64,000 bases of DNA, taken from assembly GCA_013334825.1 (NCBI GenBank), contig JAAXWR010000003.1:37167-101166 (forward strand). The letters run 5' to 3'. The position numbers and the translations under genes are program-made. Below, piece by piece: positions 8,801 to 43,399 of the stretch (positions within the stretch are counted from its first letter, which is position 1; each line of letters starts with the position of its first letter). The DNA is from Candidatus Yonathbacteria bacterium. Lineage in GTDB: Bacteria; Patescibacteriota; Minisyncoccia; Phycocordibacterales; JACNGX01. The notes beneath the pieces are model-generated. The model was not told the origin of the DNA and searched no databases. It saw nothing but the letters and a program-made list of their open reading frames with translations.

Positions 8801-10285
8801 AATCTCCTTACGAAGTTCATTCTCACTTTGCGAAACAAATGTTTCCATTTCCTCGTGCGTTATACCCGTGTGAGAAACAACAATAGGTGACGGCGTCGAA
8901 ACAACTCGTTCAATAACTCTCTCAAGAATGACCGGCGATTCTTTTTGTGGTGTATCTTTCTTGTCTGAAAGATGTGGAGTGGATGAAGTAGATGCATCCG
9001 CAGCAGACAACTCATCTGGAAGATGTTCAGATGCGTAAGAAGAAGTGTCCGTAGCAGATGTTGCCAACCCCTGAGACTTTGGAGATGTTTTTATCCCCGC
9101 GATAAAGCGATACAAACGAAGAGCAACAGTATCTATGTATGTTGTTACTTTTTCTCCTATACCAAAAACATTCGCGACCGTGCCTACTCGCAAGGATGCG
9201 AACATGTCATGGTGATAAAAATTTCTCTCCTGTATAGCGGTCGTTACACTCTCTCCCGCCTGATACATAACAGACGCAAGTGTATCGCCAACAAATGTTT
9301 CGCCTGCGACAAGTGTGTCACGCACTGATGTGAAGAAGGTGAAATATCCAGACGAAAAGGAAGATACTGTATCTGCGATAGTTCTTGTGTATGCAACTGC
9401 TTCTTTGCCTACGTGTTCTGTGAGGAAGGTATGAGAAAATGTGCGGGCAAGTGATGCGCGCATGTTTGCAAACGTCGTCATAAGCAATTCACCCGCGAAC
9501 GTACTGAGAGACGCGAGTGTTGCTGTCATCGCGTGTGTTGTTGTGGTGATGTTCGTCGCGACTGCATTCGTCGTGGTTGTCGTGGTACGCGCGATAGCAT
9601 CTGTGATGGTGTGCGTACCACGTGCGAGAGATGAGGTAAAAGTTTCCACCACATCAATAAACATGTCGTGTGTACCATGGGCAAATGTAGACACAAACGT
9701 AACTGTGGAGAGAGAGGTATCTTCTGTTGTTGTATCATAGTCACTGACTTCATAGTCACTGACTTCTTGTGATGATGTGGGTGAAAGAGACGCGACAACA
9801 TGTTGCAGAGGTGCTGAGACTTCAGAGACGACACGAGAAAGACCGCCCTCATGCGCGGAGAGTATTGCATCCCCCGCAAAAATAGTTGCGAGTACCAGGA
9901 CAGCCGTAAGTAAAAACTTTGCAGTCGCTCCCGTTGAGACAGTCGCTTCCGCAACCTCTTTTATGTGAGAAAATAACACCTTGTTATAGAGGGGTACACC
10001 CATCCCCCCATGCTTCAAGAATACCCCATATGCCTTCTTGGAACGAAGAGAGGATTCGGCAATACGTTTGAAAAATCGTTCGCGCTTTTTCCCTCCATAC
10101 GCGTCCATATACACACAGAGTGAATCAAGGTCAATGAAGCGTGTTCTGTTTTTTATTTCCCCTTTGAGACGACCGTTTCGTGCGAGCATGCTCAAATAAT
10201 CGGATGTGAATCCTGTCAATTCGGCGGCTTTTTTTGATGAAACATACTGCGTTCCTTTTGCAGTAGTAAACGAATCTCGTGACAT
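2819..10285 (-). CDS. giant (2488 aa) membrane-anchored surface protein with tail-fibre-like GIGTTSP repeats
   Basis: Single uninterrupted ORF. N-terminal excisionase-like HTH-like segment (KKAAELTGFTSDYLSMLARNGRLKGEI), one TM helix (FLLTAVLVLATIFAG), then about 2300 aa of Thr/Ser/Gly/Asn-rich beta-repeat sequence. Threefold repeats of about 350 aa (GNVGIGTTSPAQKLDIASGNVRIDNTTHASEYGIIYKGSDRFIHNFNYGLNGGG...) and twofold LAFGDGDTGFYE.SDDVLRLQTAGADRVTVL modules. Confidence 0.8.
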   Translation of the reverse strand: MSRDSFTTAKGTQYVSSKKAAELTGFTSDYLSMLARNGRLKGEIKNRTRFIDLDSLCVYMDAYGGKKRERFFKRIAESSLRSKKAYGVFLKHGGMGVPLYNKVLFSHIKEVAEATVSTGATAKFLLTAVLVLATIFAGDAILSAHEGGLSRVVSEVSAPLQHVVASLSPTSSQEVSDYEVSDYDTTTEDTSLSTVTFVSTFAHGTHDMFIDVVETFTSSLARGTHTITDAIARTTTTTTNAVATNITTTTHAMTATLASLSTFAGELLMTTFANMRASLARTFSHTFLTEHVGKEAVAYTRTIADTVSSFSSGYFTFFTSVRDTLVAGETFVGDTLASVMYQAGESVTTAIQERNFYHHDMFASLRVGTVANVFGIGEKVTTYIDTVALRLYRFIAGIKTSPKSQGLATSATDTSSYASEHLPDELSAADASTSSTPHLSDKKDTPQKESPVILERVIERVVSTPSPIVVSHTGITHEEMETFVSQSENELRKEIAKVSTVTGDNFRTIALTQRVDKLSGVDISRANIIASTFEGSITGTVGSFSGDVSVEGAASFTGDLSVTGDVSLADVLTIDTTTGLLSVGPGVSTRGIDGTGDVYISGALDVVSGIHVRNSMTVYDDTTSMTVTPSLIIIPNAEFSDITSTGNFSVTAGETGVDTATVSGFARIGFDTIGLTTVGSSSATPLTLLTPLAQEHSLFVENGIEALGNIVVGRNLYPETDVASDIGSLSKRFNNVYATNMVVDTISTAGQAIFNFEPIDTTYGKASLLVNPTAPLANSYLLGIGVAGTPRFSIKETGDAWLRGALTIAGNSYALTGGGLAFGDGDTGFYESSDDVLRLQTAGADRVTVLTDGKVGIGTTSPGAMLEAISSSEQLRLGYDATNNVKFTVGSGGDLTVRPNGNNFSIQPQAATYPTFKLTSNRTTGIGYSFEFLAKASNANRLIAVGTADGSHVIASDRTGTGTPTPIHFRVGNDWNSASTLLALDTSGNVGIGTTNPLQKLDIASGNVRIDNTTHASEYGIIYKGSDRFIHNFNYGLNGGGVTTEGYNTFIGINAGNFSMGSTATLTSHASYNTGIGQSALAANATGFYNSAIGAYALYSNGTGYRNSAIGAYALFANTSGSNNFGLGYQAGRYLADGSTANQASNNSVFLGNDTRALVAGGSNEIVIGANAIGLGSNSVVLGNDSIVTTVLKGNVGIGTTSPAQKLDIASGNVRIDNTTHASEYGIIYKGSDRFIHNFNYGLNGGGVTTEGYNTFIGINAGNFTMGSTATSASQASYNTAVGNSALPSNTTGNLNLAFGSRSLNSNTTGSANVAIGHGSLYNNTTGSNNVAVGRYAGRYLADVSSNETSNNSLFFGNETRALAAGGSNEIVIGASAIGLGSNSVVLGNSSITTTALRGNVGVGVDSPLAKLHLNGGTGALSTGLAFGDGDTGFYEASDDVLRLQTAGADRVTVLADGKVGIGTTGPNAKLEVSGSILASASGAQVTVGSSNKLQFTGDYAGSGDIPAGVYGGSSNGGYSLISGAASPGTNKLGGYYFSTGTGWLSSFEVANVASGYSNLLLMKGGGNVGIGTTSPAQKLDIASGNVRIDNTTHASEYGIIYKGSDRFIHNFNYGLNGGGITTEGGNTFIGINAGNFSMGSTATLTAHASYNTGIGQSALTSNTTGFQNSAIGSYALQNNTTGYNNSAIGREALRSNTTGYQNSAIGANAGRYLANGSTANQTSNNSLFLGYDTRASVAGGSNEIVIGASAIGLGSNTVVLGNDSIVTTVLKGNVGIGTIAPDRRLDVLDATNPQLRLTYTGGSVYTDFQTNSGGDLVITPSGGDARIAGTFGIQSGSYATIFQAGAQSANITYTLPTTSANGVLRNSGGTLSWDTASYPTGTGAAGHIPYWSSSSALTYDADGFFWDATNNYLGLGDMTPDSVLDILSATASNTQLSIGNTNAGNYDPQIGFQLVDGTTNIFTMGVDDSDSDKFKISGGSALGTNDRLVIDSSGNVGIGTTSPSAFLHVLGTTEQFRLGYDASNYLSMVVSSGGMVTLDATGTSSGFTFSDAVTVNGTISTGGNYVMRTSYGTSAPAFSNDGEFGIARVSASNRIYYQSNGNRYFIWNDGAGDLSEFFDNEEGEPFDFGEVVCLSSERDDAVKRCDASSDAFVIGVVSETGSRWNDNEEGTKYDSPEQYVNVGLLGHVPTKVSLENGPIRRGDYITSSSQAGVAMKAIGPGQVIGRALDAYDGESGEVGKIMVMVQSVWWGGNTADAGRDIKHIEELIEDPQEALETLLSTNIYRFHYKEGMGTGDTITEYMGVMGDESPWATQYNGSMTNPTNTLGYMVLGFQAINERFNNFVDEPVVKEEGKTLIGRLLERINTWLSDAGNGIASITAKVFKSERVETKELCLEDVCVTKEQLRTLLEQRGMNTGNGGTTDAPAVEQLPPVTETVAPTQDVLPILDATQEVSIVPDVVVEVPANPEISVPAEQPVQGEVPVLESI
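4950..7330. repeat. near-identical intragenic DNA repeats (200-400 bp units) inside the giant gene
   Basis: Segments about 5370-5592, 6481-6712 and 7100-7320 are near-identical (...gaagcggtcagagcctttgtagataatgccgtattcagatgcatgagtggtgttgtcaatccgaacattgcccgaagcgatgtc...). A second family at about 4960-5160, 6090-6290 and 6700-6900. A third at about 5880-6060 and 7700-7860. Confidence 0.8.
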
Positions 10286-10403: not shown

Positions 10404-11174
10404 TTATAACGCAAACATTATACTTTCTATTGCATCATACAATGGTGTCCCTCCTCTATGCGCATCGTGATATGCGTGCACTAAACATTTTGAGAAGTCC
10501 TGCAGTTCTTGGCTAGAAAAATGTTCTGCCGCGCGTTTGCTTTTATTAAAGACAAATTGTTTGATACCCGCTTCATCAGCCGTCTTACATATCTTGGATA
10601 CATACAGGGATTTCACTTGCCAAAAGAGCATGCCATGGATTTCTTCTGCTTGGATATCGCACATGCGCGCGCGGCAAAGAAGCGCCCACGCGCGCTTTTT
10701 ATCCCGTGCGGCAAACGCATCAGAAATATCAAATGTCGAAAAACCAGCGCACATTGTGCCAAGTGGAGACATCTGCGCGGTATGTTGCGCGGGCGCGGCA
10801 TGTCGATATATGGACTTTTCCGTATCATAGATATAGACGCGTTCGGCGTACTTTTCAAAAATCTTTTTTGTTTTGGCATCGACTTTTGTTTCGTACAAAA
10901 GAAATATGTTCTCAGACGTTGCCATGTCGGGAAGTATTGGGACAAGTGCTTCACGTGCATGCTCATCAATGAAAATACCATCAAGTATCACAAGTGACCT
11001 ACCACCAAAAAGACCCACACTTCGCGCAAGCGTCGCAAGTGTCGCTATGTCAAACGTATCCGCATCAAAGACCGACACAGAGGCATCAGGACGCTTCTGT
11101 ATAAGCGTATCGCGGAGTGCTATAAATTTCGCGCGACTTATTACAGTATTGGTACCAAGAGTGATGTAAAGCAT
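10404..11174 (-). CDS. holA: DNA polymerase III delta subunit
   Basis: Delta-subunit-like clamp-loader fold features (conserved Arg/Leu-rich N-domain; LFWQVKSLY...LYDAIESIM tail). The ORF track extends to 11276, but MLYITLG at 11174 is the likely start because the upstream part translates an intergenic repeat. Confidence 0.55.
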   Translation of the reverse strand: MLYITLGTNTVISRAKFIALRDTLIQKRPDASVSVFDADTFDIATLATLARSVGLFGGRSLVILDGIFIDEHAREALVPILPDMATSENIFLLYETKVDAKTKKIFEKYAERVYIYDTEKSIYRHAAPAQHTAQMSPLGTMCAGFSTFDISDAFAARDKKRAWALLCRARMCDIQAEEIHGMLFWQVKSLYVSKICKTADEAGIKQFVFNKSKRAAEHFSSQELQDFSKCLVHAYHDAHRGGTPLYDAIESIMFAL

Positions 11175-11325
11175 ATGCGAGTTGCGAGCACACTTACGAA
11201 TAACGAATGTGTACGAATATACGAATGATATATAACATGTGTGAAAGAAACTTTTTATTCGTATATTCGTACACATTCGTTATTCGTATGTTCATATTTC
11301 TTCATTCACATCTCGTTTCGTAGGC
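11160..11325. repeat. intergenic repeat cluster: GCGAGTT heptads plus a 66-nt dispersed repeat
   Basis: gcgagttgcgag at 11177-11188 abutting the holA start; cacttacgaataacgaat (11191-11210); 66-nt element 11257-11322 near-identical to 15358-15423. Confidence 0.7.
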
Positions 11326-11365: not shown

Positions 11366-12283
11366 TTATTCAATGCGTTCATTTGTTATCGCAACAAGTC
11401 GTGTTCGGTATTCTTCTTCATCAATGGCTCCATTGGCATAGAGTTTTTCTACACCGGCGAGGTATTGTTCTTTCACTTCTTGAGCGGTAAGAGAACGGGC
11501 GTAGATACGGACGTCGTCGATAATGCCATCCCAAAATCTATTACTATAATGCCAGCCAATGACTGTCTTGGTTGGTGTAAAAACCCCAGGAACTATATTC
11601 GTCAAATGTGTTTTTTTTATCACACCATTCAAATATATCTTCACTGAAGACCCATCATACGTACCCATGACATGATACCATTCACCTGTATTTAAGATAT
11701 TCTCAGTCGTTACGATATTTTCTGTGGAGGATGTCCCGTTTGCAACTGAAAATACTAAACTATTATTACTGCCCGAAAAAAGCACCAGCCTTAACTGAGC
11801 CCACGCAGGACCTACTTCACTTGAAAAGATCGTCATCTTAGTAGGATTCCAATGGCTAGCTTTTACCCATGCTGAAACAGCGCCTTGGTTGGGGTTTATA
11901 ACTGTGGCATTATTTAGATTAACATAATCATTCACCCCATCAAACGACAACGCATATTTACTCACCCCCGCATTGTAGGTATCGGTGGTAAAGGTTGCAC
12001 CAGATATGGTACCGTGATTACCCCAACCAGACACATCTCTGACAGTAACGCCTGACCCTTCTTCGAAGTTCCACATACCGACTGCGTCGGCACCCATAAT
12101 ACGGTCGTTTTGGGCAGCAAATTGGAGTGCTGTTTTTTGTTTTGCATCATCACGTGCTTTGTTGACGCTGGCAAGGACGATGGAAGAAAGAAGTCCGATG
12201 ATGGAAACGACAACAAGGAGTTCGATGAGCGTGAAGGCGCGGTATGTTGATGCTCTCTGTGATGAGAACGATATGTGCATCAT
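11366..12283 (-). CDS. type IV pilin-like protein with C-terminal LamG/concanavalin-like domain
   Basis: Prepilin N-terminus RAFTLIELLVVVSIIGLLSSIVLASV (class III signal with conserved Glu). C-terminal Laminin_G_3-like segment (DGVNDYVNL...GEWYHVMGTYDG...IYLNGV...DDVRIYARSL). Start chosen at ATGATG 12283, downstream of the TGCTATACT motif; the ORF track extends to 12415. Confidence 0.7.
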   Translation of the reverse strand: MMHISFSSQRASTYRAFTLIELLVVVSIIGLLSSIVLASVNKARDDAKQKTALQFAAQNDRIMGADAVGMWNFEEGSGVTVRDVSGWGNHGTISGATFTTDTYNAGVSKYALSFDGVNDYVNLNNATVINPNQGAVSAWVKASHWNPTKMTIFSSEVGPAWAQLRLVLFSGSNNSLVFSVANGTSSTENIVTTENILNTGEWYHVMGTYDGSSVKIYLNGVIKKTHLTNIVPGVFTPTKTVIGWHYSNRFWDGIIDDVRIYARSLTAQEVKEQYLAGVEKLYANGAIDEEEYRTRLVAITNERIE

Positions 12284-12472
12284 GATAGATATAGTATAGC
12301 ATGTGCGAGTTGCGAGTTGCGAGTTAATAATTATGTGGTGGATATAGCATTTGTCAGTTTTTCTCTGTATTTCATTTTCCAAAGCATCAAACAACACATG
12401 CCAAATCACAAACAAATATCAATCATCAAATGCTAAAACGTTGTTTGAATATTAGGTATTAGAATTTGAATA

Positions 12473-14908
12473 TTATTTGGATTTTGAGGATTGAGATTTA
12501 GAATTTCCATTATTTGCTACCACTTCCATCTTCCCCCATCGTACCCCTTTTGACGCATTGACGACAAGTGGCACGGGAAGTTCTACGGCATATTCCATCG
12601 CCTGTTTGATAAGAGGAATGGCTTCACCCACGTTATCCGTATCTACTTCAAAAAGTAGTTCGTCATGCACCTGGAGAAGGAGCCGTACATGCGTCTCATA
12701 TCCTGCCTCATGTATGGCATCATCGACTTTTTTCATTGCAATTTTAATAATATCCGCAGCGGTCCCTTGAATCGGTGCATTCATCGCTTGTCGCTCCGCC
12801 CCCGCACGAATATAGGGAATGTGCGAGCGTATCTCGGCAAGACGTCGCTTTCGTCCAAACATTGTCGTGGTAAAACCGTCTCGTGCCACGCCCTGCTTCA
12901 CTGTATCAAAATACTCGCCCACACGCGGAAATCGTTCGAAATAATGATCATAAAACATCCGTGCTTCGGCAAGCGTCCCCCCCATTGTGGCGCGGAGCGC
13001 TTGCACTCCCATGCCATACACAATACCAAAGTTTATCACTTTTGCTTTGCGTCGCATGTCCTTTGTCACTTCATGGGGAGCTACGCCAAAAACCTGCTCG
13101 GCAACTGCCGTATGAATGTCATACCCTTCATTGAACGCGGACACGAGTGTTTCGTCTCCCGAAAGCGCGGCAAGTACACGCATCTCAATTTGTGAATAAT
13201 CAAACGCACACAGTAGTGTCCCTTCCGGCGCGACAAACGCATCACGAATAATAATTCCTTCTCCTTGTGTTGGAATATTTTGTAAATTTGGTCCCGACGA
13301 GGAAAAGCGCCCTGTTGTGGTGCCTGTTTGGTCAAGGTGCGTATGCACACGACCATCAGCATCTGCAAGCGCGGGAAGTGTATCAACGTATGTAGAAACA
13401 AGCTTCTGGAGCTCGCGATACGCAAGTATGTTTTCAATAATCGGATGCGCGTCTTTTAATTTTTCAAGTTCTGATTCACGCGTGCTTCGCGCACCACCCG
13501 CTGTCTTTTTCAGTCCTTTTACAGTAAGCCCCAAAACATCAAACAATATCTCGCCAAGTTGTTTTGGTGAATTGATATTAAACTCTTGTCCCGCGAGCGC
13601 ATAGATATCCTTTGCCATATCATCGAGACGCGCGTGATAGGTAACAGATAGTTCCTCAAGAAACGGTTTATCAATGCGAATACCACGAAGTTCCGCTGCG
13701 GTGATAATAGGGGCAATGGGCATTTCAATATCACGCCACACGGACAGCAACCCATCCGCTTCAAGGTCATCCATAATGCGCGCACGTGCACGCGAAAAAT
13801 CGCGCGTCCCCGCATACGCATAGATGTCATCAAGTGACGGATTGGTCGTATCTGACGCGAGAAGCCAAAGTGCGATGGCGGTCTCACGGATTTCCGTAGG
13901 GTCGGGCGGGGCGCCTTCATCGGAAGGCGCCCCGCCCGACATATCATCATCATTCGTCACATCCCCTTCCGTGCCAAGAAGCGCGCGAAAACGCGGGATA
14001 AGAGAGCGAAATTCAAGCGTATGAAAAAGCCCTTCTACACGAGAAGTATCGAGCGCCTCGCGCCACGTATTATCAGGCAACACAAAAGACACAGGGGCAT
14101 CGCGCCGAATCGTCGCGAGTGTTTTTGAAAATAATGCTTCGTCTTCACCGTCAGTAAGCAATTTTACAACACGTGGAGAGAGCCCTGCTTTTCTCAATGT
14201 TTCCTCTCCTTCTTTTTTGAGACATGTATAGATATCTTCAATAGAACCAAACGTAGCTACCAGTGTCGTTGCTGTTTTTTCACCAATACCCGCAATGCCG
14301 ATAATATTATCAGAAGGGTCACCACGAAGTCCTTTATAGTCAGGGAGAAGACGTGGCCCAAAACCAAAACGTTCTCGTACAGCATCTTCGTTATACATGA
14401 TCGTATCATTCAACCCTTTTTTTAATGTATATACGCGGACACTATTATTCTCCACAAGTTGTAGTGTATCCATATCACCAGACGCAATCACCACATCAAT
14501 ATCGGGATATGCCTTTCTTACTTGCGCGGCAATAGTTCCCAACACGTCATCCGCCTCAAAACCAACCGCTTCATACACAGGGATACCAAACACCGCAAAG
14601 ATATCACGCGAACGTATGATTTGCGACACAAGTGCGTCGTCCGTCTTCGCCCGACCAGCTTTATATCCATCATAGGCATCGTGCCGAAACGTAGGCTCAG
14701 GAAGGTCATAACACGCCACAATATAATCAGGGCGAAGTTCCTTAACAATATTCATAAGCATTGCCGACACTCCGTAGAGCCCTCCCGACGGCTCGCCTGC
14801 TGATGTAGAGAAATCGGGCAACGCATGATACGCACGATGAATAATAGCGTGCGCATCGAGAAGGACGAGGGTTTTTCGTTTGTGTATTACATCATGCATA
14901 TCTGTCAT
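12473..14908 (-). CDS. polA: DNA polymerase I (5'-3' exonuclease plus polymerase domains; no obvious 3'-5' exonuclease domain)
   Basis: N-terminal 5' nuclease motifs (LLDAHAIIHRAYHAL, GIAGIGEKTA). Pol A motifs RRKAKVINFGIVYGMG and QVHDELLFE. Confidence 0.9.
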   Translation of the reverse strand: MTDMHDVIHKRKTLVLLDAHAIIHRAYHALPDFSTSAGEPSGGLYGVSAMLMNIVKELRPDYIVACYDLPEPTFRHDAYDGYKAGRAKTDDALVSQIIRSRDIFAVFGIPVYEAVGFEADDVLGTIAAQVRKAYPDIDVVIASGDMDTLQLVENNSVRVYTLKKGLNDTIMYNEDAVRERFGFGPRLLPDYKGLRGDPSDNIIGIAGIGEKTATTLVATFGSIEDIYTCLKKEGEETLRKAGLSPRVVKLLTDGEDEALFSKTLATIRRDAPVSFVLPDNTWREALDTSRVEGLFHTLEFRSLIPRFRALLGTEGDVTNDDDMSGGAPSDEGAPPDPTEIRETAIALWLLASDTTNPSLDDIYAYAGTRDFSRARARIMDDLEADGLLSVWRDIEMPIAPIITAAELRGIRIDKPFLEELSVTYHARLDDMAKDIYALAGQEFNINSPKQLGEILFDVLGLTVKGLKKTAGGARSTRESELEKLKDAHPIIENILAYRELQKLVSTYVDTLPALADADGRVHTHLDQTGTTTGRFSSSGPNLQNIPTQGEGIIIRDAFVAPEGTLLCAFDYSQIEMRVLAALSGDETLVSAFNEGYDIHTAVAEQVFGVAPHEVTKDMRRKAKVINFGIVYGMGVQALRATMGGTLAEARMFYDHYFERFPRVGEYFDTVKQGVARDGFTTTMFGRKRRLAEIRSHIPYIRAGAERQAMNAPIQGTAADIIKIAMKKVDDAIHEAGYETHVRLLLQVHDELLFEVDTDNVGEAIPLIKQAMEYAVELPVPLVVNASKGVRWGKMEVVANNGNSKSQSSKSK

Positions 14909-15521
14909 GAAACATAGAGACAGTATATCAGATAGGCGTCGAGTTGCGAGTACGATTACAGATGAAGAACCCTGATGCAGAGCATCGAAATATTGAGAAT
15001 AGCGAATGTCACGAATCGTAAAACAAGAACTGGCGACTCTTCATCTAGCATCAAGTTCAGGATGACACTCTTTTCCATCTGTCATTCTGTGCTTGCCCCA
15101 GAATCCACGTCGGAGGCGTTATGTATTATTCCATTGACGTGGATCCTGAATCAAGTTCAGGATGACGAACGAGAGGGTTTAGGATGGCGGACAGTGGCGT
15201 TCAGGACGACGGATCTTGTTGAGTTACGAATTATAAGTTTCAAGAACACTTACGAATAACGAATACGATTTCTTTTTCATTTTATAGTTTTCTTCTTCAT
15301 ATTTCTATTTTCTTATTTCATCGTTTATCGTTTTTTATAGTTTATCGTTTCTTAGTCATTCGTATATTCGTACACATTCGTTATTCGTATGTTCATATTT
15401 CTTCATTCACGTCCCGTTTCGTATGTTCGTACAAGTTCGTAATTCGTAACCCTTAATTCTTGATTCGTGCTTCGTGATTCTTGATTCGAGTGTTCGTCCC
15501 TATCACCTCTCACCTATTTCC
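14909..15521. repeat. 613-bp intergenic region with direct and inverted repeats plus dispersed repeat copies
   Basis: TCAAGTTCAGGATGAC at 15051-15066 and 15151-15166 (exactly 100 nt apart; partial third copy about 15197-15212). IR CCACGTC/GACGTGG (15105-15142). cgtttatcg-type AT-rich repeats at 15266-15357. 66-nt element at 15358-15423. Confidence 0.7.
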
Positions 15522-15986
15522 TCATGCCCCACCCCGTTTCATATTCCTCATAGATATCTTTCGCGTTTCCTCATCCACATGCGTAAACACCATTGGTATC
15601 ATGTCTTTCGGTAGTATATGCTCCACCCGCTCTGGCCATTCAATACACACAAGGTTGTGCGGTTCAGCAACAATACCATGCCATCCAAGCGATGACATGG
15701 TATCGCCTTCGTCAAGACGATAGGCATCAATATGCACAAGACGACGAAACAAAGTTCCTGGATGTTCAGGAATTATATATGTTCGCAGGAGTGCAAATGT
15801 AGGACTCGTCACTGTTTCCTTGATACCAAGCTCATGGGCAAGTGCTTTGACAAACGCTGTCTTTCCCGCACCAAGGTCGCCCGAGAGAGCAAGGACAGTC
15901 GCGGCGTTTTCGCTTCGCGAAAACGCCGCGACTACTTCCCGCGCAACAACATTCATCTCTTGTATACCACGCACAATATATTCCAT
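15522..15986 (-). CDS. tsaE: tRNA threonylcarbamoyladenosine biosynthesis protein TsaE
   Basis: LSGDLGAGKTAFVKALAHELGI...VTSPTFALL (P-loop plus SPTF motif). Confidence 0.85.
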   Translation of the reverse strand: MEYIVRGIQEMNVVAREVVAAFSRSENAATVLALSGDLGAGKTAFVKALAHELGIKETVTSPTFALLRTYIIPEHPGTLFRRLVHIDAYRLDEGDTMSSLGWHGIVAEPHNLVCIEWPERVEHILPKDMIPMVFTHVDEETRKISMRNMKRGGA

Positions 15987-16081
15987 ACACCCAGAATATA
16001 CGTCTCTCTACACACACGCAAGCCTAAATCTATGCGGAACCTATGCGGAAAGAACGCAGAACTTCGCGGACGAAACAACCC

Positions 16082-20390: not shown

Positions 20391-20571
20391 ATCTTTTTTC
20401 TAATTTTCTAGGTTTAAAAAACTCTTCTTCTTTCATATCAAAAACAAGTCCCCTTTGTCAACTTGTTCGCTATAAACTTTTTTCAGTTTTCATATGCATA
20501 CACTACAAAAAACTTTTATATTTTCTTTTCTACATATTATTCATCATTCACGTCTATGCTATACTATACAC

Positions 20572-22278
20572 ATGACAACTTTTCAGGATCCGAAACAAGA
20601 CGAACGTTTTAGAGAACTCCAAAAAAAAGAGCAGGAAGACTTAGTCGTCATGCTCGCGGAACGCCACGGGTTCCCTCATACACGCCTTTCAACAGCCACT
20701 ATCAATACCGATGCACTTCGTCTCATTCCTGAAGCAGAGGCACGTAAGGCAAACGTTGCCCCATTCGCACTCATTGGAAAGCGCGTCAAAGTCGGTGCAA
20801 CTTCCCCCACAAGTCCTGAAACTCTCGCCATCGTCGACGACCTCTCACGTCGTGGATATGAACCAGAGGTCGTCATGATTTCTCAAACAAGTATTGAACA
20901 CGCATGGGTGCTCTATCCGGAAATATCGAAAGCAGAAGAAACAGAAGCGGGTGTTTTTGATGTTTCAGGACGAGAGCTAGTCTCTCTCGCACAAGACATC
21001 AAGGGATTATCTGGTATCACCGATGCTGTCACAGCGATTACCGACACATCCTCTTCGCGCAATAAAATTTCTCGCGTTCTTGAAGCACTTCTGGGTGGAG
21101 CAGTCGCAGTAGGTGCATCAGATATTCACTTTGAACCAGAAGCATCTGGTGCACGTGTACGCATGCGTATCGACGGTGTTCTTATTGATGTATCTCGTTT
21201 AAATGGAGATATGTATCGTTTTCTTTTGTCTCGTATCAAACTTCTTTCAGGACTCAAGTTAAACATTACGGAGAATTCTCAAGATGGACGTTTTAGTATT
21301 CGGTTGCCAGAAAACGCTATTGAAATTCGTACTTCTGTTATCCCAGAAGAACACGGTGAGTCTGTTGTTATGCGTCTTTTAAATCCTGAGTCACTCACCA
21401 TTCCTTTTGAAGAACTTGGTATTGATCCATATCTATTCGCCATTCTCAAAAAAGAAATCAATCGTCCCGATGGATTGGTACTCACCACTGGCCCCACTGG
21501 TTCAGGAAAAACAACAACTCTCTACTCATTTCTCAAATATATTCACACTCCCGAAGTAAAAATCATCACCATAGAAAACCCAATTGAATATCATCTTGAC
21601 GGCATCACTCAAACCCAAACGAATACCAAGGAAGGATATACATTCGTCCAAGGTCTCAAAACAGCACTTCGTCAAGATCCCGATATTATCATGGTTGGTG
21701 AAATCCGTGACTCCGATACGGCGCAAACGGCTTTGAACGCAGCTTTTACCGGACACCTTGTTTTTTCAACACTACATACCAATAACGCAGCGGGGGTCAT
21801 TCCCAGACTGGTAAACCTTGGCGTTAACCCAAAACTTATTACTTCGGGCCTCAATGTTTCACTCGCACAACGTCTCACACGTCGTCTTTGCCCTACATGT
21901 AAGCGTCCGCACGTCTTTGACGCAGAGGAGCAAAATATCGTTGAACGAGCAATTGACCGGTACAACAAAAAACGCGGAACGGACAAATCGTTCGCGCAAG
22001 GAACTTTTTTTGATGCGAATACAGATACAGAAAACACCTGTCCTGTATGCGGCGGGCTTGGCTATAAAGGACGTATCGGCGTATATGAAGGCATCCTCAC
22101 TGATGAACATATCGAAGCGGTCATTTTAAGTGACAACCTCACTGAACGAGAAATAAAAAAAGCGGCCGAAGCCCAAAATATTCCGAGCATGGCCGAAGAT
22201 GGTATCGCAGGAAAAATGTATGCGGGTTTGACCTCATTTCATGAGCTTCGTCGAGTTGTGGATGTCGATGAAACGTGA
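20572..22278 (+). CDS. pilB: type IV pilus assembly ATPase PilB (GspE-family secretion ATPase)
   Basis: T2SSE N-terminal domain; Walker A LTTGPTGSGKTTTL; Asp/His boxes; C-terminal tetracysteine zinc motif CPTC...CPVCG. Start at ATG 20572, immediately after the TGCTATACT motif; the ORF track extends to 20494. Confidence 0.9.
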   Translation: MTTFQDPKQDERFRELQKKEQEDLVVMLAERHGFPHTRLSTATINTDALRLIPEAEARKANVAPFALIGKRVKVGATSPTSPETLAIVDDLSRRGYEPEVVMISQTSIEHAWVLYPEISKAEETEAGVFDVSGRELVSLAQDIKGLSGITDAVTAITDTSSSRNKISRVLEALLGGAVAVGASDIHFEPEASGARVRMRIDGVLIDVSRLNGDMYRFLLSRIKLLSGLKLNITENSQDGRFSIRLPENAIEIRTSVIPEEHGESVVMRLLNPESLTIPFEELGIDPYLFAILKKEINRPDGLVLTTGPTGSGKTTTLYSFLKYIHTPEVKIITIENPIEYHLDGITQTQTNTKEGYTFVQGLKTALRQDPDIIMVGEIRDSDTAQTALNAAFTGHLVFSTLHTNNAAGVIPRLVNLGVNPKLITSGLNVSLAQRLTRRLCPTCKRPHVFDAEEQNIVERAIDRYNKKRGTDKSFAQGTFFDANTDTENTCPVCGGLGYKGRIGVYEGILTDEHIEAVILSDNLTEREIKKAAEAQNIPSMAEDGIAGKMYAGLTSFHELRRVVDVDET

Positions 22279-24156: not shown

Positions 24157-24269
24157 AAGAACGTAGGTAAGAGGAAACAGGTTATAGGGACAAACACTCG
24201 AATCAAGCATGCCCTGCACCCTACGTGGCGTGCTGTGCATCCTACGTGGTGCACAGTGCACAGTGCTGG

Positions 24270-24440
24270 GGAATATACGAATGACTAAAAAACGATAAAC
24301 GATGAAATACGAAAATAGAAATAAGAAATATGAAGACGAAAACTATAAACGGCACACGATGAAATACGGAAATTGAAATATGAAATATGAAGAAGAAAAC
24401 TATAAACGGTAAATGATAAAAAATTTGTTATCTCGTTTTA
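24270..24440. repeat. dispersed AT-rich intergenic repeat (inverted relative to the 15266-15365 copy)
   Basis: gaatatacgaatgactaaaaaacgataaacgatgaaatacg...aactataaacgg is the approximate reverse complement of cgtttatcgttttttatag...gtcattcgtatattc at 15300-15365. Confidence 0.6.
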
Positions 24441-24552
24441 TTTCTACTCATACAGAAAGAGAAGTTGTGTATGTCATTGAAACATTAAGGTGTTGTTTAC
24501 ATATTGAGATTTATTTGAAATTTAGATTTTGTAATTTTGATTTTTTACTCTT

Positions 24553-25324: not shown

Positions 25325-26719
25325 TTATTCCCAAACGACCACACGCACGAACGAGTGTTTCCCTACACGAAACGCTATTGTTTGAGAGATGGTGTAGTGA
25401 TAATCAGATACCACACCATGAGTATCAGAAAGAATATGGAGACCCGCTCCGTCGACAAGACGACGATAAGCGCTCTTTGATTCAAGAATATGTTCACGAA
25501 CAAGAATATCAGCAAGCATCTCTCCGCGCTTCGCGCGGACTTCGGGCATTGTCTCGGGAATTTCTTTTTTGCTAAATGTATTTACAAATGATTCTTCGGC
25601 GTGTCGCGCGGCTTCTTCTCCGTGGTAGATAGAGACAATCTGTCGCGCGAGGGCGAGTTTGGCGTCGCGTGGGTTTTCTTTCCCAGATGAGAGACGAGAC
25701 GCGAGCGCGCGGATATCGTCTTCTGGGGTAAATGTCGTTAATTCGTAATATGTAACAATCACCGTGTCGGGGATAGACATCACTTTACCAAACATATCTT
25801 CAGGTGCATCGGTTATGGCAATATAGTTTCCCAAACTCTTACTCATTTTTTCTTTTCCATCTGTACCAGGAAGAATGGGAACAGACATGACCGCTTGTTG
25901 TTCCATACTATTTGCCTTCATCACATCTCGCCCAATATGCATATTGAACATTTGGTCAGTGCCACCAACTTCCAAATCACACGATCCATATACTTTCCCA
26001 ATGACAACAGAATCAATCCCTTGGAGTACAGGATACATCATCTCATGCATATAAAGTTCTGCGCCATTTTTCAGACGTTCTTGAAACATGTCGCGCTCAA
26101 TAAGACGTGCATGCGTCAAGCCACGAAGTGTGGCGAGAAAACCTCGAAGTGTGATATCCACCAATTCCTTACGCTTGAGAAACTTTTTCTGCATACGTGT
26201 GTTTTCATACAACAGTGCTTTCCCCACAAATGATGACGGATTCACAGGCGTCACACCAAAACGCATCATAAGTCCTTTTTTGGGCGCCATATCAGAAACC
26301 GATAAAAACCAATCAGCATTTCGAATCCAAGAGAATGATATCGCATCTGTACGAAGAATGGTGCCAATCTGATCGAGATACGTCTTCATGTTTTGTTCAA
26401 CCTCCATTTGGTCAATCTCTGGACGGACCTTACTTTTCCCCGTGGGGTCACCAATCATAGCGGTGAAATCTCCCACCAAAAATACAATCTTACATCCCAC
26501 ATCCTGGAGGGCACGTAATTTTCGAAGTGCAACCGCATGTCCGAGGTGGATATCGGGACGTGTTGGATCAACACCAAACTTGACAATAATATCATGTGGA
26601 TATTCACCCCGTATCTTTGCTTCAAGTTTTTTGCGGAACAATCCTTCTGGATCAGTTAACTGCGCAATCCCTTGTGTGTATATACGATCACTCTCTATGT
26701 CTTGCTTTCCTTGTTTCAT
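25325..26719 (-). CDS. tyrS: tyrosine--tRNA ligase
   Basis: HIGH-type motif DPTRPDIHLGH, KMSKS motif KMSKSLGN, C-terminal S4-like domain. Start at MKQGKQ (26719); the ORF track extends to 26740. Confidence 0.85.
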   Translation of the reverse strand: MKQGKQDIESDRIYTQGIAQLTDPEGLFRKKLEAKIRGEYPHDIIVKFGVDPTRPDIHLGHAVALRKLRALQDVGCKIVFLVGDFTAMIGDPTGKSKVRPEIDQMEVEQNMKTYLDQIGTILRTDAISFSWIRNADWFLSVSDMAPKKGLMMRFGVTPVNPSSFVGKALLYENTRMQKKFLKRKELVDITLRGFLATLRGLTHARLIERDMFQERLKNGAELYMHEMMYPVLQGIDSVVIGKVYGSCDLEVGGTDQMFNMHIGRDVMKANSMEQQAVMSVPILPGTDGKEKMSKSLGNYIAITDAPEDMFGKVMSIPDTVIVTYYELTTFTPEDDIRALASRLSSGKENPRDAKLALARQIVSIYHGEEAARHAEESFVNTFSKKEIPETMPEVRAKRGEMLADILVREHILESKSAYRRLVDGAGLHILSDTHGVVSDYHYTISQTIAFRVGKHSFVRVVVWE

Positions 26720-26749
26720 ACATACTACTATACATGACAAAGAGGTATT

Positions 26750-29680: not shown

Positions 29681-30814
29681 TTAACGATTCATTGGCATCA
29701 CTAAATACATAAATGAAACATCTCCAATTGGTGTGATAATGATAGGTCGTCCTTTTCCAAAAAACGACATTTGTAAACTATCTGTTGAAATTGCTTGAAA
29801 TGCATCTGTAATATATTTATAATTAACACTAATATCAATTTCTTCTCCAGACAATGATGCTTGTATTGGAACAATACTAGTACCAATGTCTGAATTTTTT
29901 GTTTCAATAATAAATCTTTTTTCTTTTGGATTTATTGAAAAGATTGTTTGACGAAATGTGTTCGCAACAATAGTACTCACTTTAAGGGCATTTATAAGAT
30001 CTTCTTTTAGCACAATAACTTGTGTGGTGTGTTCTTTAGGAATAATTTGTTTATAATCAGGAAATGTCCCATTAATAATGCGTGATGTTACATATACACC
30101 TTCTTTTTCAATAACAATTTGATGATCATTAAAACGAATATCAAGTGTGTCATCTATTCCATCAAACACTTTTATCAGCTCTTGAGCATTTTTAAAAGGA
30201 ATAAGGATTCCTCCCCAATCACGAATATTTTTTTCTTTTACTTTTTTCTCAGCAAGGCGAAATGAATCTGTGGCTACAAATACAATGGTGTCATTTTCTG
30301 GATATATATATACACTTGCGAGTTCTGGTTTTATATCTGATACAGAAGAAGCATATACGACAGATTTTAAACCAATTACTAATTTTTTTGACTCAAGAGA
30401 GAATGTATACCCATCAGACACTACAGGAAGGGTCGGAAACTCCTCTGTAGGAGCTCCTTTGATAGTTGTAGTGACTTCCCCACCAGAAATAATTATATGC
30501 CCATTCTGTGAGGTAATTTCGACTGTTTTAACAGTATTTCCAAATGTACTTAAAAGACCATTGATGATATGTGCAGGAATAGCAACAATACCTTCACCTT
30601 CTGTTTTTGCAGGAATAGCTACTTCTATACCAATATCAAGATTTGTGGCTCGTAATACGAGCATTTTATTCTTTACCTCAACTAACATATTTGAAAGGAT
30701 GGGAAGGGAGAGACTTTTTCCTGTCATTTTTTCTGCTTTTGTTACCATTGATGCAAACATTTCACGAGAACATGATGCTGAAAATTCACTTACTGTTTTT
30801 TGTACAGTTGTCAT
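29681..30814 (-). CDS. dnaN: DNA polymerase III beta subunit (sliding clamp)
   Basis: Three-domain beta-clamp pattern (N-terminus ...LSLPILSNMLVEVKNKMLVLRATNLDIGIEV); position immediately downstream of dnaA. Confidence 0.85.
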   Translation of the reverse strand: MTTVQKTVSEFSASCSREMFASMVTKAEKMTGKSLSLPILSNMLVEVKNKMLVLRATNLDIGIEVAIPAKTEGEGIVAIPAHIINGLLSTFGNTVKTVEITSQNGHIIISGGEVTTTIKGAPTEEFPTLPVVSDGYTFSLESKKLVIGLKSVVYASSVSDIKPELASVYIYPENDTIVFVATDSFRLAEKKVKEKNIRDWGGILIPFKNAQELIKVFDGIDDTLDIRFNDHQIVIEKEGVYVTSRIINGTFPDYKQIIPKEHTTQVIVLKEDLINALKVSTIVANTFRQTIFSINPKEKRFIIETKNSDIGTSIVPIQASLSGEEIDISVNYKYITDAFQAISTDSLQMSFFGKGRPIIITPIGDVSFMYLVMPMNR

Positions 30815-31059
30815 AATGTGGAAAAGTTATGTTTATAATATATAGATATATATTATTACTATTATATACGTGTATAAGTGGATAACACAAATATGTTACG
30901 TAATACCAATACTATTTCATCAACAGGAGTGTAAATGAGTCTACACAAATTATACATACATTACTACGTGTATAAAGAAAATAATTGGTATACACATATT
31001 CTTAACATCTTTTATATACCATTATCCTTTATTATTTCACATAATATCCACAGAGTTTT
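30815..31059. promoter_or_regulatory. AT-rich dnaA-dnaN intergenic region with DnaA-box-like sites (candidate oriC part / DUE)
   Basis: agtggataa 30867-30875 (reverse-complement TTATCCACT, 8/9); atatccaca 31044-31052 (8/9); long AT tracts (tatagatatatattattactattatatacg). Confidence 0.55.
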
Positions 31060-32403
31060 CTACAGAAGAGCGCGTATTTGATCAACTTCATTTCGTAATA
31101 TATCATCATTTGATAAATCATTTCTCATTTTTTCATACGAATGCATAACTGTTGTGTGGTCACGTCCCCCTAATTTTTTTCCAATAAGTGGATATGATGC
31201 ATTATAATCTTCACGTAATAAATACATGACGACTTGTCTTGGTTTTACCACCTCTTTTCTTCGTGTTTTTTCATAAATATCTTTTTCTTCAATACTATAG
31301 AAACCAGCAACTATTTTTGTGACATCCTTAAAGGAAATAATACTTTTTGGTTTATTTGTTCCGCGAACAATAGCTTTAATATCGTCAAGTGTGATGATAT
31401 TGTTTTTTATTTGTGCGTGACAAGATACAGTATTTAATACTCCTTCTAATTCTCTAATATTTCCTTCAACTGTCATGGCAAGATATTCAATTGCTTGAGG
31501 ATCAAGAAGAAGTCCTTTTTCTTGTGCTTTCATAGAAAAAATAGACGTACGTGCTTCAAATTCAGGTTGACTGATATCCACAATCATTCCTGCATTAAAA
31601 CGTGATTTGAGACGTGCCTCAAGTCCAGGAATGAAATTTGGATGCATATCAGATGAAAAAACAATTTGTTTATTCGCATCATATAAGGTGTTAAATACAT
31701 GGAATAATTCTTCTTGGGTTTTTTCTTTATTAGAAAGAAATTGAATATCATCCATAATCAGAACATCATATGTGCGATATTTTTCTTTAAACACATTCAC
31801 TGTGTCATTTTGAAGGGAAGAAATATACTCAACAAGGAATTTTTCTGATGTGAGATACATAACATTTTTCCCCATATCTTTTTTGAGATAATTACCAATT
31901 GCTTGTATGAGGTGTGTCTTCCCTACTCCTGTTCCTCCATACACAAAGAATGGGTTATATACAATACCAGGTTTTTTGATAATTGCTTGAGATGCTGCAT
32001 ATGCGAGTGTGTTGAACGATCCAACAATAAATGAATCAAATGTATATTTTGGATTGAGATTACTTTGTTTATCAATGTATAAATCTGACAAAGGAAGTTC
32101 CTCAGAAGAACACATTGTTTTTGTATGAGGAATATCAGGGGATGATTTTTTCTCACCTTTATGAATGATGTATTCTACGCCACGTACTCCATCAGATAAT
32201 TCACGTAATGATTTGAGTATCATTTTATGGAATTTTGTGGAAAGCCATTCCTTCACAAATTCATTAGGAACAGCGACTGTGATCACACCTTCTTCTTGTC
32301 TCGCAATATAAGTGTTTCGAAACCACGTACTAAAATTTGCACGCGAGAGGTTTGCTTCCATATCGGAGAGTACACTATTCCAAAGTTGAGTTTGATCCGA
32401 CAT
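31060..32403 (-). CDS. dnaA: chromosomal replication initiator protein DnaA
   Basis: AAA+ Walker A NPFFVYGGTGVGKTHL, Walker B LIMDDIQFL, C-terminal DnaA box-binding HTH (TTVMHS...). Confidence 0.95.
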   Translation of the reverse strand: MSDQTQLWNSVLSDMEANLSRANFSTWFRNTYIARQEEGVITVAVPNEFVKEWLSTKFHKMILKSLRELSDGVRGVEYIIHKGEKKSSPDIPHTKTMCSSEELPLSDLYIDKQSNLNPKYTFDSFIVGSFNTLAYAASQAIIKKPGIVYNPFFVYGGTGVGKTHLIQAIGNYLKKDMGKNVMYLTSEKFLVEYISSLQNDTVNVFKEKYRTYDVLIMDDIQFLSNKEKTQEELFHVFNTLYDANKQIVFSSDMHPNFIPGLEARLKSRFNAGMIVDISQPEFEARTSIFSMKAQEKGLLLDPQAIEYLAMTVEGNIRELEGVLNTVSCHAQIKNNIITLDDIKAIVRGTNKPKSIISFKDVTKIVAGFYSIEEKDIYEKTRRKEVVKPRQVVMYLLREDYNASYPLIGKKLGGRDHTTVMHSYEKMRNDLSNDDILRNEVDQIRALL

Positions 32404-32648
32404 AATGAAGATGAGGATTGATTTGATTGATAATCGTTACGAACGTGCATGTAATTATATACGGGTGGATAGGAAGTGGAAACTTGCGAACATGGGAAAA
32501 GTCTGTTGATAAGGTGTGGATAAATAATTATATGAATAAAAACTCGAGAAACATATACATATAAACATATAAATGATAAATAACACATAAATCCTTTCGT
32601 ATTGGAATATGTTGCTTTTTTCATACTATGGTGTATAGTAATGCAACT
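32404..32648. promoter_or_regulatory. dnaA upstream region with DnaA boxes (candidate oriC part)
   Basis: Perfect TGTGGATAA (reverse-complement TTATCCACA) at 32515-32523; ggtggatag at 32464-32472 (reverse-complement CTATCCACC, 7/9); tgttgataa at 32504-32512 (reverse-complement TTATCAACA, 8/9). Confidence 0.6.
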
Positions 32649-32783
32649 ATGTCGCAAACATATAAACCAAGCAAAAGAAAGCGTGCGACCACACATGGTT
32701 TTCTTGTTCGTTCTGAAACACCTTCAGGACGCGCAATCCTTAAAAACCGCCGCCGTAAAGGGCGCGCAAAGCTTTCCGTGTAA
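32649..32783 (+). CDS. rpmH: 50S ribosomal protein L34
   Basis: 44-aa [47 protein letters not shown] found by manual translation (below ORF-track cutoff); canonical position divergent from dnaA. Confidence 0.9.
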
Positions 32784-32848
32784 TATATAAATAAAAAAAC
32801 AAATAACACAACCTTTTCAAGGTTGTGTTATTTGTTTATGATGGAGGA

Positions 32849-33196
32849 ATGCTTTCCAAACATCTCAGACTTACCAGTCATGATATTCCCCTACCACAAA
32901 AAGGATTACAGGTATTTCATACTGAACGACTTACACTTGCAATATCTCCTTGTCATGATAAAAAACCATCGAAATTTGCTGTTCTTGTCTCAAAAAAAGG
33001 GAAAAATGCTCCTACACGCAATAAGATGCGACGTCGTATATATGAAGCAATTGGAATGTTTAGGGGTCGTATAAAACAAGGATATAGATGTATATTCTCT
33101 CTCAAAAAAGGTATTTCTTCTGATATTCCCTATCACATTATCTTCGCGGACGTTACTATTCTTCTCAAACAAGCGGGATTACTATGTCTTTCTTAA
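32849..33196 (+). CDS. rnpA: ribonuclease P protein component
   Basis: FAVLVSKKGKNAPTRNKMRRRIYEA (RNR motif); synteny rpmH-rnpA-yidD-yidC; start uncertain (32825 or 32849). Confidence 0.8.
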   Translation: MLSKHLRLTSHDIPLPQKGLQVFHTERLTLAISPCHDKKPSKFAVLVSKKGKNAPTRNKMRRRIYEAIGMFRGRIKQGYRCIFSLKKGISSDIPYHIIFADVTILLKQAGLLCLS

Positions 33197-33444
33197 AAAA
33201 CATACATAAAAATATAATCGTGTGGCTTGTCAGGGTATATCAATTCTTTCTTTCACCGGACAAAAATATTCTTGTAAAAATAGGTGCTATTCAACCACGG
33301 ATAACCTGCGTGTTTTACCCAACGTGTTCGGAATATATGATCCTTGCTATTGAGAAATATGGTGTACGAAAAGGGATTGTCAAAGGAATACAGCGTATTG
33401 GCAAGTGTCGTAAAGGTACTCCCCTGTCGGTCGATATGCCGTAA
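33184..33444 (+). CDS. yidD: membrane protein insertion efficiency factor YidD
   Basis: YQFFLSP....CVFYPTCSEYMILAIEKYG..KG...RI.KC; conserved synteny. Confidence 0.85.
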   Translation: MSFLKNIHKNIIVWLVRVYQFFLSPDKNILVKIGAIQPRITCVFYPTCSEYMILAIEKYGVRKGIVKGIQRIGKCRKGTPLSVDMP

Positions 33445-33492
33445 CGCCTTTTTCCTTGCTCAAACAAGGAAAAAGGCGTACAATACGGAAAT

Positions 33493-34263: not shown

Positions 34264-34267
34264 CTCT

Positions 34268-36091: not shown

Positions 36092-36129
36092 GAAAGAAAA
36101 AAGTATACCAATAATTTAATGTGTGTACA

Positions 36130-37182: not shown

Positions 37183-37202
37183 GTAATCTAGTATATCACG
37201 TA

Positions 37203-39065: not shown

Positions 39066-39092
39066 AGTATGTATAGTGTATCACAAAGAGGA

Positions 39093-39722: not shown

Positions 39723-39740
39723 AAGGGTTGTTAGGTAGGA

Positions 39741-40157: not shown

Positions 40158-40175
40158 GAGAGTCTTATGCGTTTA

Positions 40176-40937: not shown

Positions 40938-40975
40938 GATAGTGTTAAAGTGTGAATGTGAGGGTGTCTATGTAA

Positions 40976-43315: not shown

Positions 43316-43399
43316 GAATATAGTATAACAAATTATATACCAAAAAAAAACAAGAATAATGTGTAGAGCTTGGTAGAAAAATCGCGAGTATTTTTAGAG

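Follow-up and report, generated by a model that had tools for sequence, protein, structure and literature searches.

The stretch of DNA analysed here (the window) is a 64-kb part of contig JAAXWR010000003.1 from a Candidatus Yonathbacteria bacterium (assembly GCA_013334825.1), a member of the Parcubacteria within the Candidate Phyla Radiation (CPR) whose reduced genome has a G+C content of about 44%. Directly upstream of several start codons in this window the same short element, TGNTATACT, recurs on the coding strand and resembles an extended -10 promoter box. A good example is pilB, whose product belongs to T2SSE/MshEN (Pfam). Here TGCTATACT at 20557-20565 of the forward strand is followed after 6 nucleotides (nt; ATACAC) by the ATG at 20572-20574; box and start codon together thus occupy only 20557-20574, and a leaderless mRNA is predicted. 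The pilB open reading frame (ORF) extends further 5' of ATG 20572, but its relatives align from residue 1 of the motif-linked start. The public gene calls give 568 amino acids (aa), and an identical PilB protein is recorded in the NCBI assembly GCA_013335985.1 (contig JAAXUO010000001.1).

All other start-proximal copies lie on the reverse strand. The gene of a 130-aa membrane protein upstream of a ClpB-like gene (promoter and start at 61608-61625) has TGCTATACT at 61617-61625, again 6 nt before the ATG (61610-61608), and shares 18 identical nucleotides with the pilB site. In uvrD (53989-54006), TGCTATACT at 53998-54006 and 6 nt (ACTCTC) precede the ATG at 53991-53989, and the UvrD-helicase domain of the product begins as early as residue 7. 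The gene of a 779-aa membrane protein in a type IV secretion-like cluster (43313-43330) carries TGTTATACT at 43322-43330, 6 nt before a GTG (43315-43313) which is the first start codon of this ORF. In the same cluster, a 350-aa protein gene (37180-37198) shows TGATATACT at 37190-37198, 7 nt before the ATG at 37182-37180, the whole promoter sitting in a 20-nt gap behind a VirB4/TraG-like gene. Somewhat wider spacings are found for a 427-aa protein gene (36089-36110; TGGTATACT at 36102-36110, 10 nt, ATG 36091-36089), where a leader of about 4 nt is predicted, and for a pilin-like gene (12281-12301; TGCTATACT at 12293-12301, 9 nt, ATG 12283-12281) with a predicted leader of about 3 nt. The pilin-like protein has a prepilin N-methylation motif at residues 15-37 and a LamG domain. 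Thus, although the ORFs of pilB and of the pilin-like gene both run further upstream, their motif-linked ATGs are supported by homology.

The widest spacing belongs to polA (14906-14930), where TGATATACT at 14922-14930 is separated by 13 nt from the ATG at 14908-14906. Exactly 6 nt past the hexamer (within 14906-14921) there is an ATG that is not in frame with polA; its 7-codon ORF (MFHDRYA) runs into and overlaps the polA start codon. The polA ATG itself lies 7 nt beyond this out-of-frame ATG, while most relatives have the polA ATG at 6 nt. Such an arrangement could stem from a small insertion, or else polA may have a 7-nt leader or be preceded by a leaderless mini-ORF.

Six of these positions, namely those at pilB, the pilin-like gene, uvrD, polA and 43322 together with one orphan copy at 54545-54553, had been reported correctly and with the right sequences in a first-pass annotation made from the letters of the window. 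The copy before the 130-aa membrane protein is also present, one position away from where it had been placed (61618-61626), and the two at 37190-37198 and 36102-36110 had been overlooked. A further, weaker copy proposed for the CM-MTase gene (ATG 55463) did not convince us and was rejected, as the closest similar sequence, CTATTACACATG, has at its end the ATG of a 4-codon ORF, 24 nt 5' of the CM-MTase ATG.

In total, both strands of the window contain 13 exact matches to TGNTATACT, where 1.60 +/- 1.24 are expected from 100 dinucleotide-preserving shuffles, the largest shuffle count being five. Eight of the 13 lie on the coding strand 6-13 nt 5' of a real start codon, at spacings of 6, 6, 6, 6, 7, 9, 10 and 13 nt. 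Defining a qualifying start as one that opens an ORF of at least 80 codons and lies no more than 50 codons behind the preceding in-frame stop, we find such a start 5-13 nt downstream of 8/13 copies but of only 3.2% of window positions (binomial P = 1.3e-9). An even distribution, named beforehand as an outcome that would speak against the reading, is thus not found: the motif is concentrated 6-13 nt before starts, and its recurrence there is real. The hexamer is TATACT in all 13 copies; conversely, the TGn extension is found at 13 of the 29 TATACT hexamers of the window and at all eight start-proximal ones. The base at -1 is C at every one of these eight sites, and in six of the eight genes the motif-linked codon is the first possible start of the ORF, pilB and the pilin-like gene being the exceptions. 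A -35 box is hardly recognizable, as the best match to TTGACA reaches between 0 and 4 of the 6 positions. Of the five remaining copies one is the orphan on the reverse strand, and four are intragenic with no start codon behind them (1261-1269 on the forward strand, 42306-42314, 44500-44508 and 45607-45615 on the reverse strand). With about 1.6 copies expected by chance, these four are probably fortuitous or constrained by coding.

The same geometry was found in related genomes by a test which is independent of gene annotation: for each occurrence of a motif, we recorded the offsets at which a qualifying start codon follows. Two samples were used, the 16 loci of the polA relatives (about 250 kb) and all 96 related loci (1.29 Mb). 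The PolA relatives are metagenome-assembled genomes of Parcubacteria/Paceibacteria, some of them labelled Zambryskibacteria or Nomurabacteria. For TGNTANNNT, the general form TGnTAnnnT, the polA loci contain 37 starts with a spacing of exactly 6 nt and 16 with one of 7 nt, whereas chance predicts 2.0 for each offset. In the 96 loci 158 starts are found at exactly 6 nt and 43 at 7 nt, with 7.9 expected. TATAAT, TATACT and TACAAT each give the identical single-nucleotide peak at 6 nt in the latter set.

An unbiased profile of 882 regions upstream of first ATGs holds information only at T-15 G-14 n T-12 A-11 n A-9 A-8 T-7 and at -1. It thus reads TGnTAnAAT, in register with the A of the ATG as +1. 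In a profile of 287 sites from the relatives, T and G reach 58% and 60% at the TG positions, and no -35 information was seen there. A pyrimidine at -1 precedes 83% of the box-bearing starts, compared to 61% of boxless first ATGs and 56% of internal ATGs. The T-12/A-11/T-7 hexamer, a TGn above chance and a weak or dispensable -35 are the anatomy of a sigma-70-type extended -10 promoter.

The box also depends on the genetic neighbourhood. Among the relatives, a strict box at 6-7 nt is found before 36-38% of the genes that probably stand first in a transcription unit (38% of those with a divergent upstream neighbour, 36% of those behind a same-strand gap of 30-99 nt), compared to 15% at gaps below 30 nt. 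This makes the box 2.5-fold commoner before genes needing their own promoter than before tightly packed ones. At same-strand gaps of at least 100 nt a strict box was found in only 19%, the underlying gene calls being crude.

At orthologous genes the arrangement is kept in spite of diverged promoter sequences. In 52 of 78 distinct regions upstream of pilB orthologues TAnnnT stands exactly 6 nt before the ATG, and in eight more at 7 nt, over a background of 2-3 per offset; the flanking sequences are otherwise unrelated. Of the 52 boxes at 6 nt, 25 have TGn and 47 a pyrimidine at -1. Close relatives keep the form of the window, with TGCTATACTATTTAC-ATG, TGCTATACTATACCC-ATG and TGCTATACTATACTC-ATG. 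A box at 6-7 nt precedes tsaE in 36/41 orthologues, tyrS in 10/15 and yidC in 7/10. For polA, the 16 relatives were read by eye: a -10-like hexamer stands at exactly 6 nt in about nine and at 7-9 nt in three more, for example TGGTATACT + 6 + ATG in the relative L020. In ruvB orthologues, by contrast, the conserved spacing of the box is 12 nt, implying that these genes have a short leader, and dnaA orthologues are mostly without a box. Because tsaE, tyrS, yidC and polA keep the box at 6-7 nt, ruvB keeps it at 12 nt and dnaA mostly has none, the arrangement is gene-specific and maintained by selection.

Signals for ribosome binding are scarce in the same sequences. In the 882 upstream regions G is depleted between -13 and -6, and a Shine-Dalgarno signal is therefore absent from the profile. 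AGGAG shows a weak peak in the 96 loci (28 vs 6.7 expected), and no clear Shine-Dalgarno peak was seen for it in the 16 closest polA loci. The Shine-Dalgarno-like hexamers of the window are nearly all intragenic; perfect and correctly spaced ones precede only three starts, those of a 162-aa gene at 63342 and of two small ORFs. That the box-bearing genes lack a Shine-Dalgarno sequence, as proposed in the first-pass annotation, agrees with these data, since the box leaves no room for one and the signal of the lineage is near background. The three correctly spaced sites suggest that the anti-Shine-Dalgarno motif is retained in the genome. The 3' end of the 16S rRNA, where it would be found, is present neither in the window nor in any of the 96 loci, and Rfam detects just one tRNA in the window. 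A survey of CPR ribosomes by Tsurumaki et al. found the anti-Shine-Dalgarno motif in no more than 48% of Parcubacteria and bS21 to be frequently absent; its accessible part says nothing on how translation then starts (PMC9297842).

Transcription preferably starts at a purine (+1) preceded by a pyrimidine (-1), and it is this combination that a start codon preceded by C or T offers. As transcription starts are centred 7 bp beyond the -10 element (PMC12641261), a 6-nt spacer puts +1 on the A of the ATG. We therefore favour, with a probability of roughly 80%, the reading that these boxes are extended -10 promoters of the primary sigma factor which abut the start codons and would give rise to leaderless (6-7 nt) or near-leaderless (9-13 nt) mRNAs translated without Shine-Dalgarno pairing. 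TGnTATACT would then be the strongest version that this organism has of TGnTAnnnT, the extended -10 element of housekeeping sigma-70-type promoters, and promoters of this type can function without a recognizable -35. At a spacing of 6-7 nt RNA polymerase, starting about 7 nt past the hexamer, would initiate directly on the first base (A or G) of the start codon, as predicted for pilB, the 130-aa membrane protein, uvrD and the 779-aa and 350-aa proteins. For the pilin-like gene, the 427-aa protein and polA, spaced at 9-13 nt, the predicted transcript begins 3-7 nt before the start codon. Such mRNAs would have no Shine-Dalgarno sequence, and a ribosome carrying the initiator tRNA presumably binds the 5'-terminal AUG or GUG directly. 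Judging from the relatives, this mode would be general to the Parcubacteria clade and not peculiar to the genes of the window. Binding by the primary sigma factor, the precise mRNA 5' ends and the way in which translation begins are inferred. The position, the mode at 6 nt, the conservation at orthologues, the pyrimidine at -1 and the missing Shine-Dalgarno sequence all speak for the leaderless or near-leaderless transcription that had been proposed at the outset, and each computational test able to refute it came out in its favour.

Looser boxes in a comparable position were found at further genes of the window. Near-consensus copies (TGATACACT) precede a BtpA-family gene (57455-57472 on the reverse strand; 6 nt, ATG 57457-57455) and the VirB4/TraG-like ATPase gene (39063-39083, reverse; 9 nt, ATG 39065-39063). 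A glycosyl transferase family 3 gene (58653-58667, reverse) has TATTAT 6 nt before the ATG at 58655-58653, and the tyrosyl-tRNA synthetase gene tyrS (26717-26732, reverse) has TATAGT 7 nt before the ATG at 26719-26717. In front of tsaE (15984-16000, reverse) the box is either TATATT at 8 nt or TATTCT at 6 nt before the ATG at 15986-15984. On the forward strand, TACAAT stands 8 nt before the ATG (33493-33495) of yidC (33479-33495), and TATAGT 9 nt before the ATG (32649-32651) of rpmH (32634-32651), which encodes ribosomal protein L34 at 32649-32783. The last two genes belong to the replication-origin region at 29681-34738, with dnaN and dnaA on the reverse strand and rpmH, rnpA, a yidD-like ORF, yidC and jag on the forward strand; the minimum of the cumulative GC skew lies at about 32 kb of the window. 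Further genes recognized by Pfam are ruvB, ruvC, yebC, a class A penicillin-binding protein and a secretion cluster of the Gram-positive type with PrgI and VirB4/TraG-like proteins. Canonical TTGACA-17-TATAAT promoters with leaders are present as well, for example before the genes of an 839-aa and a 314-aa secreted protein. The gene of a 2,488-aa protein (2819-10285, reverse) has a TAAAAT box 8 nt before its ATG and an internal tandem repeat of 51 nt (5165-5302); no Pfam match was found for this protein.

In the type IV secretion-like cluster (34808-43315, reverse) at least four consecutive genes on the same strand each have their own TGnTA(T/C)ACT box. These are the 779-aa, VirB4/TraG-like, 350-aa and 427-aa genes, and two of the boxes are found in gaps of just 20-38 nt. 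This suggests one promoter per gene and not a single polycistronic mRNA.

The orphan copy differs from the start-proximal copies in its upstream part. Its promoter (54545-54572, reverse) combines a TTGACA at 54567-54572, identical to the consensus in 6/6 positions, with TATACT after 16 nt, the latter within TGCTATACT at 54545-54553. The predicted transcript of about 258 nt (54281-54538, reverse) includes AAGGAGGTG at 54445-54453, an ATG at 54441 with a 38-codon ORF (54325-54441), and an intrinsic terminator at 54281-54305. Its structured leader comprises about 95 nt, and the folding z score is -5.4 compared to shuffles. No Rfam family matches the transcript, and even with permissive thresholds Rfam gave nothing credible on 53900-55500. 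A small RNA without an ORF behind it had been envisaged here; the small RNA is a reasonable guess for a terminated and structured transcript, but something does lie behind the promoter, as the 38-codon ORF is preceded by a Shine-Dalgarno sequence.

A second unit of similar build is located at 55059-55289 (reverse). It consists of a TTGACG-17-TGCTATGAT promoter, a 22-codon ORF at 55116-55184 (MKKLFLGARRHPGVESRVSFVG) and a strong terminator. Its Shine-Dalgarno sequence (AAAGGAGG) and the ATG lie within a hairpin, and the 197-nt RNA (55059-55255) folds with a z score of -8.0; a credible Rfam match was not found for this unit (55059-55289). Both units might be either mRNAs for small proteins or non-coding RNAs.

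Several promoters of the window are accompanied by short tandem repeats. An array of 7.6 copies of AACTCGC (61635-61687, reverse) lies directly 5' of the promoter at 61617. The same heptamer occurs 3.1 times at 12304-12325, at the promoter of the pilin-like gene, and partly at 14931-14950 before polA, and it puts TCGCAA at the -35 position. Another array, 4.3 copies of AAGAACT (54023-54052, reverse), lies 5' of the uvrD promoter, and further period-7 arrays are found at 63945-63974, 15452-15487 and 51982-52008. All period-7 arrays of the window are intergenic. Heptamer arrays of other sequence precede pilB in relatives: CAACTGA in L020, CTAGAAG in L024, L057 and L083, and ATAATTC in L038 and L048. 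A heptamer array of three copies with at least 85% identity accompanies 12/383 strict leaderless promoters in the relatives, while controls have 0-1 of them, and period 7 is shown by 12 of the 14 strong arrays in the relatives. As a general property of these promoters the period was not found, since the averaged autocorrelation shows no peak. The arrays are a minority feature and therefore not part of the core mechanism. TCGCAA, which occupies the -35 position at 4/8 sites, might be a lineage-specific -35 element, but at three of them it is simply provided by the AACTCGC array, and it is lacking in close relatives. For a promoter candidate linked to AACTCGC at about 11188 (TGCTTTACA) no in-frame start could be tied to it. 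Between the pilin-like gene and the next ORF, 11190-11300 (reverse) contains a long inverted repeat of TACGAATA / TATTCGTA octamer arrays. The 5' part of the ORF at 10404-11276 (290 aa) runs through this inverted repeat, and its annotated start is therefore doubtful. An array of ATTCGTAT is also found at 15358-15398. The intergenic regions at 14931-15521 (about 600 nt) and 24157-24552 (about 400 nt) are unusually long for a reduced genome and are filled with varied tandem repeats with periods of 7-57.

Some observations weigh against leaderless promoters of the primary sigma factor. The transcription start sites are deduced from geometry alone, and three of the eight exact sites, with their spacing of 9-13 nt, are not strictly leaderless. 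Three boxes (39075, 37190 and 36102) lie in gaps of 4-38 nt within the same-strand secretion-like cluster; together with the 15% of tightly packed genes, this is the pattern that a translation signal in a polycistronic mRNA would show. In the window, all genes preceded by the exact 9-mer have to do with pili, secretion, DNA repair or membranes, which leaves room for a dedicated regulon. Finally, given three perfect and correctly spaced Shine-Dalgarno sites, initiation of the Shine-Dalgarno-dependent type has probably not been lost.

The functional bias of the exact copies might mean that the 9-mer marks a specialised class of promoters, read by an alternative sigma factor or helped by a co-regulating factor, in a competence-like regulon of DNA uptake and secretion (pilB, the pilin-like gene, the type IV secretion-like genes) and repair (polA, uvrD); the transcripts would still be leaderless. 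Indeed, beside these genes, three of them from the secretion cluster, only the membrane protein gene next to the ClpB-like gene has an exact copy, while the housekeeping genes tyrS, yidC, rpmH and tsaE show looser boxes that have no TGn. Eight genes, however, are not enough to establish such a bias, and in the relatives housekeeping genes (tsaE in 36/41, tyrS, yidC) have the same architecture with TATAAT, TACAAT or TATACT. Conservation reaches past the hexamer (TGCTATACTATAyyC), in close relatives too, and TCGCAA at the -35 position of four of the eight sites, three of which share the AACTCGC arrays, could point to a common binding site. On the other hand, TAnnnT with TG one base 5' is the canonical extended -10 of the primary sigma factor, and the orphan 9-mer, together with the consensus TTGACA 16 nt away, forms a sigma-70 promoter of the textbook kind. 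We consider a dedicated regulon, as a layer added to the promoter reading, unlikely.

Still less probable, and in our opinion very improbable, is that the box acts in translation, as an A/U-rich ribosome-binding or enhancer sequence unrelated to Shine-Dalgarno pairing within leadered or polycistronic mRNAs, similar to the 'group B' pattern of Bacteroidota. A lineage with almost no Shine-Dalgarno signal, and with the anti-Shine-Dalgarno motif in just 48% of the Parcubacteria in the ribosome survey (PMC9297842), needs another initiation signal for operon-internal genes, and the copies in the 4-38 nt gaps of the window as well as the 15% at gaps below 30 nt in relatives would fit such a role. The conserved positions T-12, A-11 and T-7 with TG at -15/-14, however, are those of a -10 box rather than of a continuous stretch for base pairing; the one-nucleotide mode at 6 nt is far sharper than is usual for ribosome-binding sites; the pyrimidine at -1 fits a transcription start; and instead of the equal occurrence before first and internal genes seen in group B there is the 2.5-fold difference. 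That the recurrence is a functionless by-product of composition or a dispersed repeat, i.e. a copied intergenic cassette, for which the 18 identical bases at pilB and 61617, the short tandem repeats of the intergenic DNA and the four intragenic copies could be quoted, is effectively refuted by the shuffles (1.6 copies, five at most) and by the architecture kept at orthologues across dozens of diverged genomes with unrelated flanks. A longer dispersed repeat was looked for and rejected, since the similarity between sites stops at the motif and the start codon.

The proposed leaderless promoters of the primary sigma factor have counterparts in other bacteria. A possible parallel is offered by Mycoplasma pneumoniae and other Mollicutes, a phylum unrelated to the Parcubacteria, with reduced genomes, strong -10 and weak or absent -35 elements, often no Shine-Dalgarno sequence and many very short or absent leaders. 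The closest match is group C of GeneMarkS-2, in which a Pribnow box precedes the first gene of 25-50% of operons at 6-8 nt from its start codon (PMC6028130; for Deinococcus deserti also PMC4007540), as validated by differential RNA sequencing in Mycobacterium tuberculosis and D. deserti (PMC6028130). As in this group, known from Actinobacteria and Deinococcus-Thermus, a -10 box is found near the starts of first genes with no Shine-Dalgarno sequence there, here with the mode at 6 nt and a strict box at 36-38% of the probable unit heads. Unlike in group C, the box of these Parcubacteria is mostly TGn-extended without -35 information, and its local consensus is TATACT, not TANNNT/TATAAT. Furthermore, the remaining genes in group C use a clear Shine-Dalgarno sequence, whereas here the signal is near background; our case is also known from sequence only. 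With the extended -10 promoters of E. coli and Gram-positive bacteria (TGnTATAAT) the element shares the TG one base 5' of TAnnnT, the weak or absent -35 and a start about 7 nt further on (PMC12641261), but those promoters normally precede 5' untranslated regions with a Shine-Dalgarno sequence, while the boxes described here abut the start codon. Group B from Bacteroidota has a weak or absent Shine-Dalgarno signal genome-wide too. Its motif, however, is not a promoter and precedes all genes including operon-internal ones (PMC6028130), whereas our box has the anatomy of a -10 element and favours the heads of transcription units. Expression without a leader has been described in other bacteria, but in this lineage the group C type appears to be new, since a literature search gave no paper connecting leaderless mRNAs to CPR, Patescibacteria, Parcubacteria or Saccharibacteria; its coverage was incomplete, and an earlier description is possible.

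A more far-reaching proposal, which we regard as tentative and rather doubtful, is that leaderless initiation is the main way of starting translation in the Parcubacteria clade, with Shine-Dalgarno pairing almost unused and each gene having its own -35-less extended -10 promoter next to the start codon, even inside clusters such as the type IV secretion-like locus. If true, this would be the functional counterpart of the frequent loss of the anti-Shine-Dalgarno motif and of bS21 in Parcubacteria, which the survey reports (PMC9297842). In these CPR bacteria the start of the transcript would equal the start of translation, a logic like that of many archaea, and the period-7 arrays upstream of some promoters would represent an undescribed promoter-associated element.

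CPR/Patescibacteria account for a large part of bacterial diversity, and their gene expression is almost unstudied. For the Shine-Dalgarno-poor Parcubacteria the arrangement described here offers a testable answer to the question of how translation begins, namely that the mRNA of genes heading a transcription unit would begin at the start codon. Predicting starts from Shine-Dalgarno sequences will not work in such genomes, and a TAnnnT box, often TGn-extended, 6-7 nt upstream may serve as a start-codon rule for CPR genomes instead. Genetic tools for CPR bacteria, too, might profit from a compact native module of 18 nt that would comprise both promoter and start codon.

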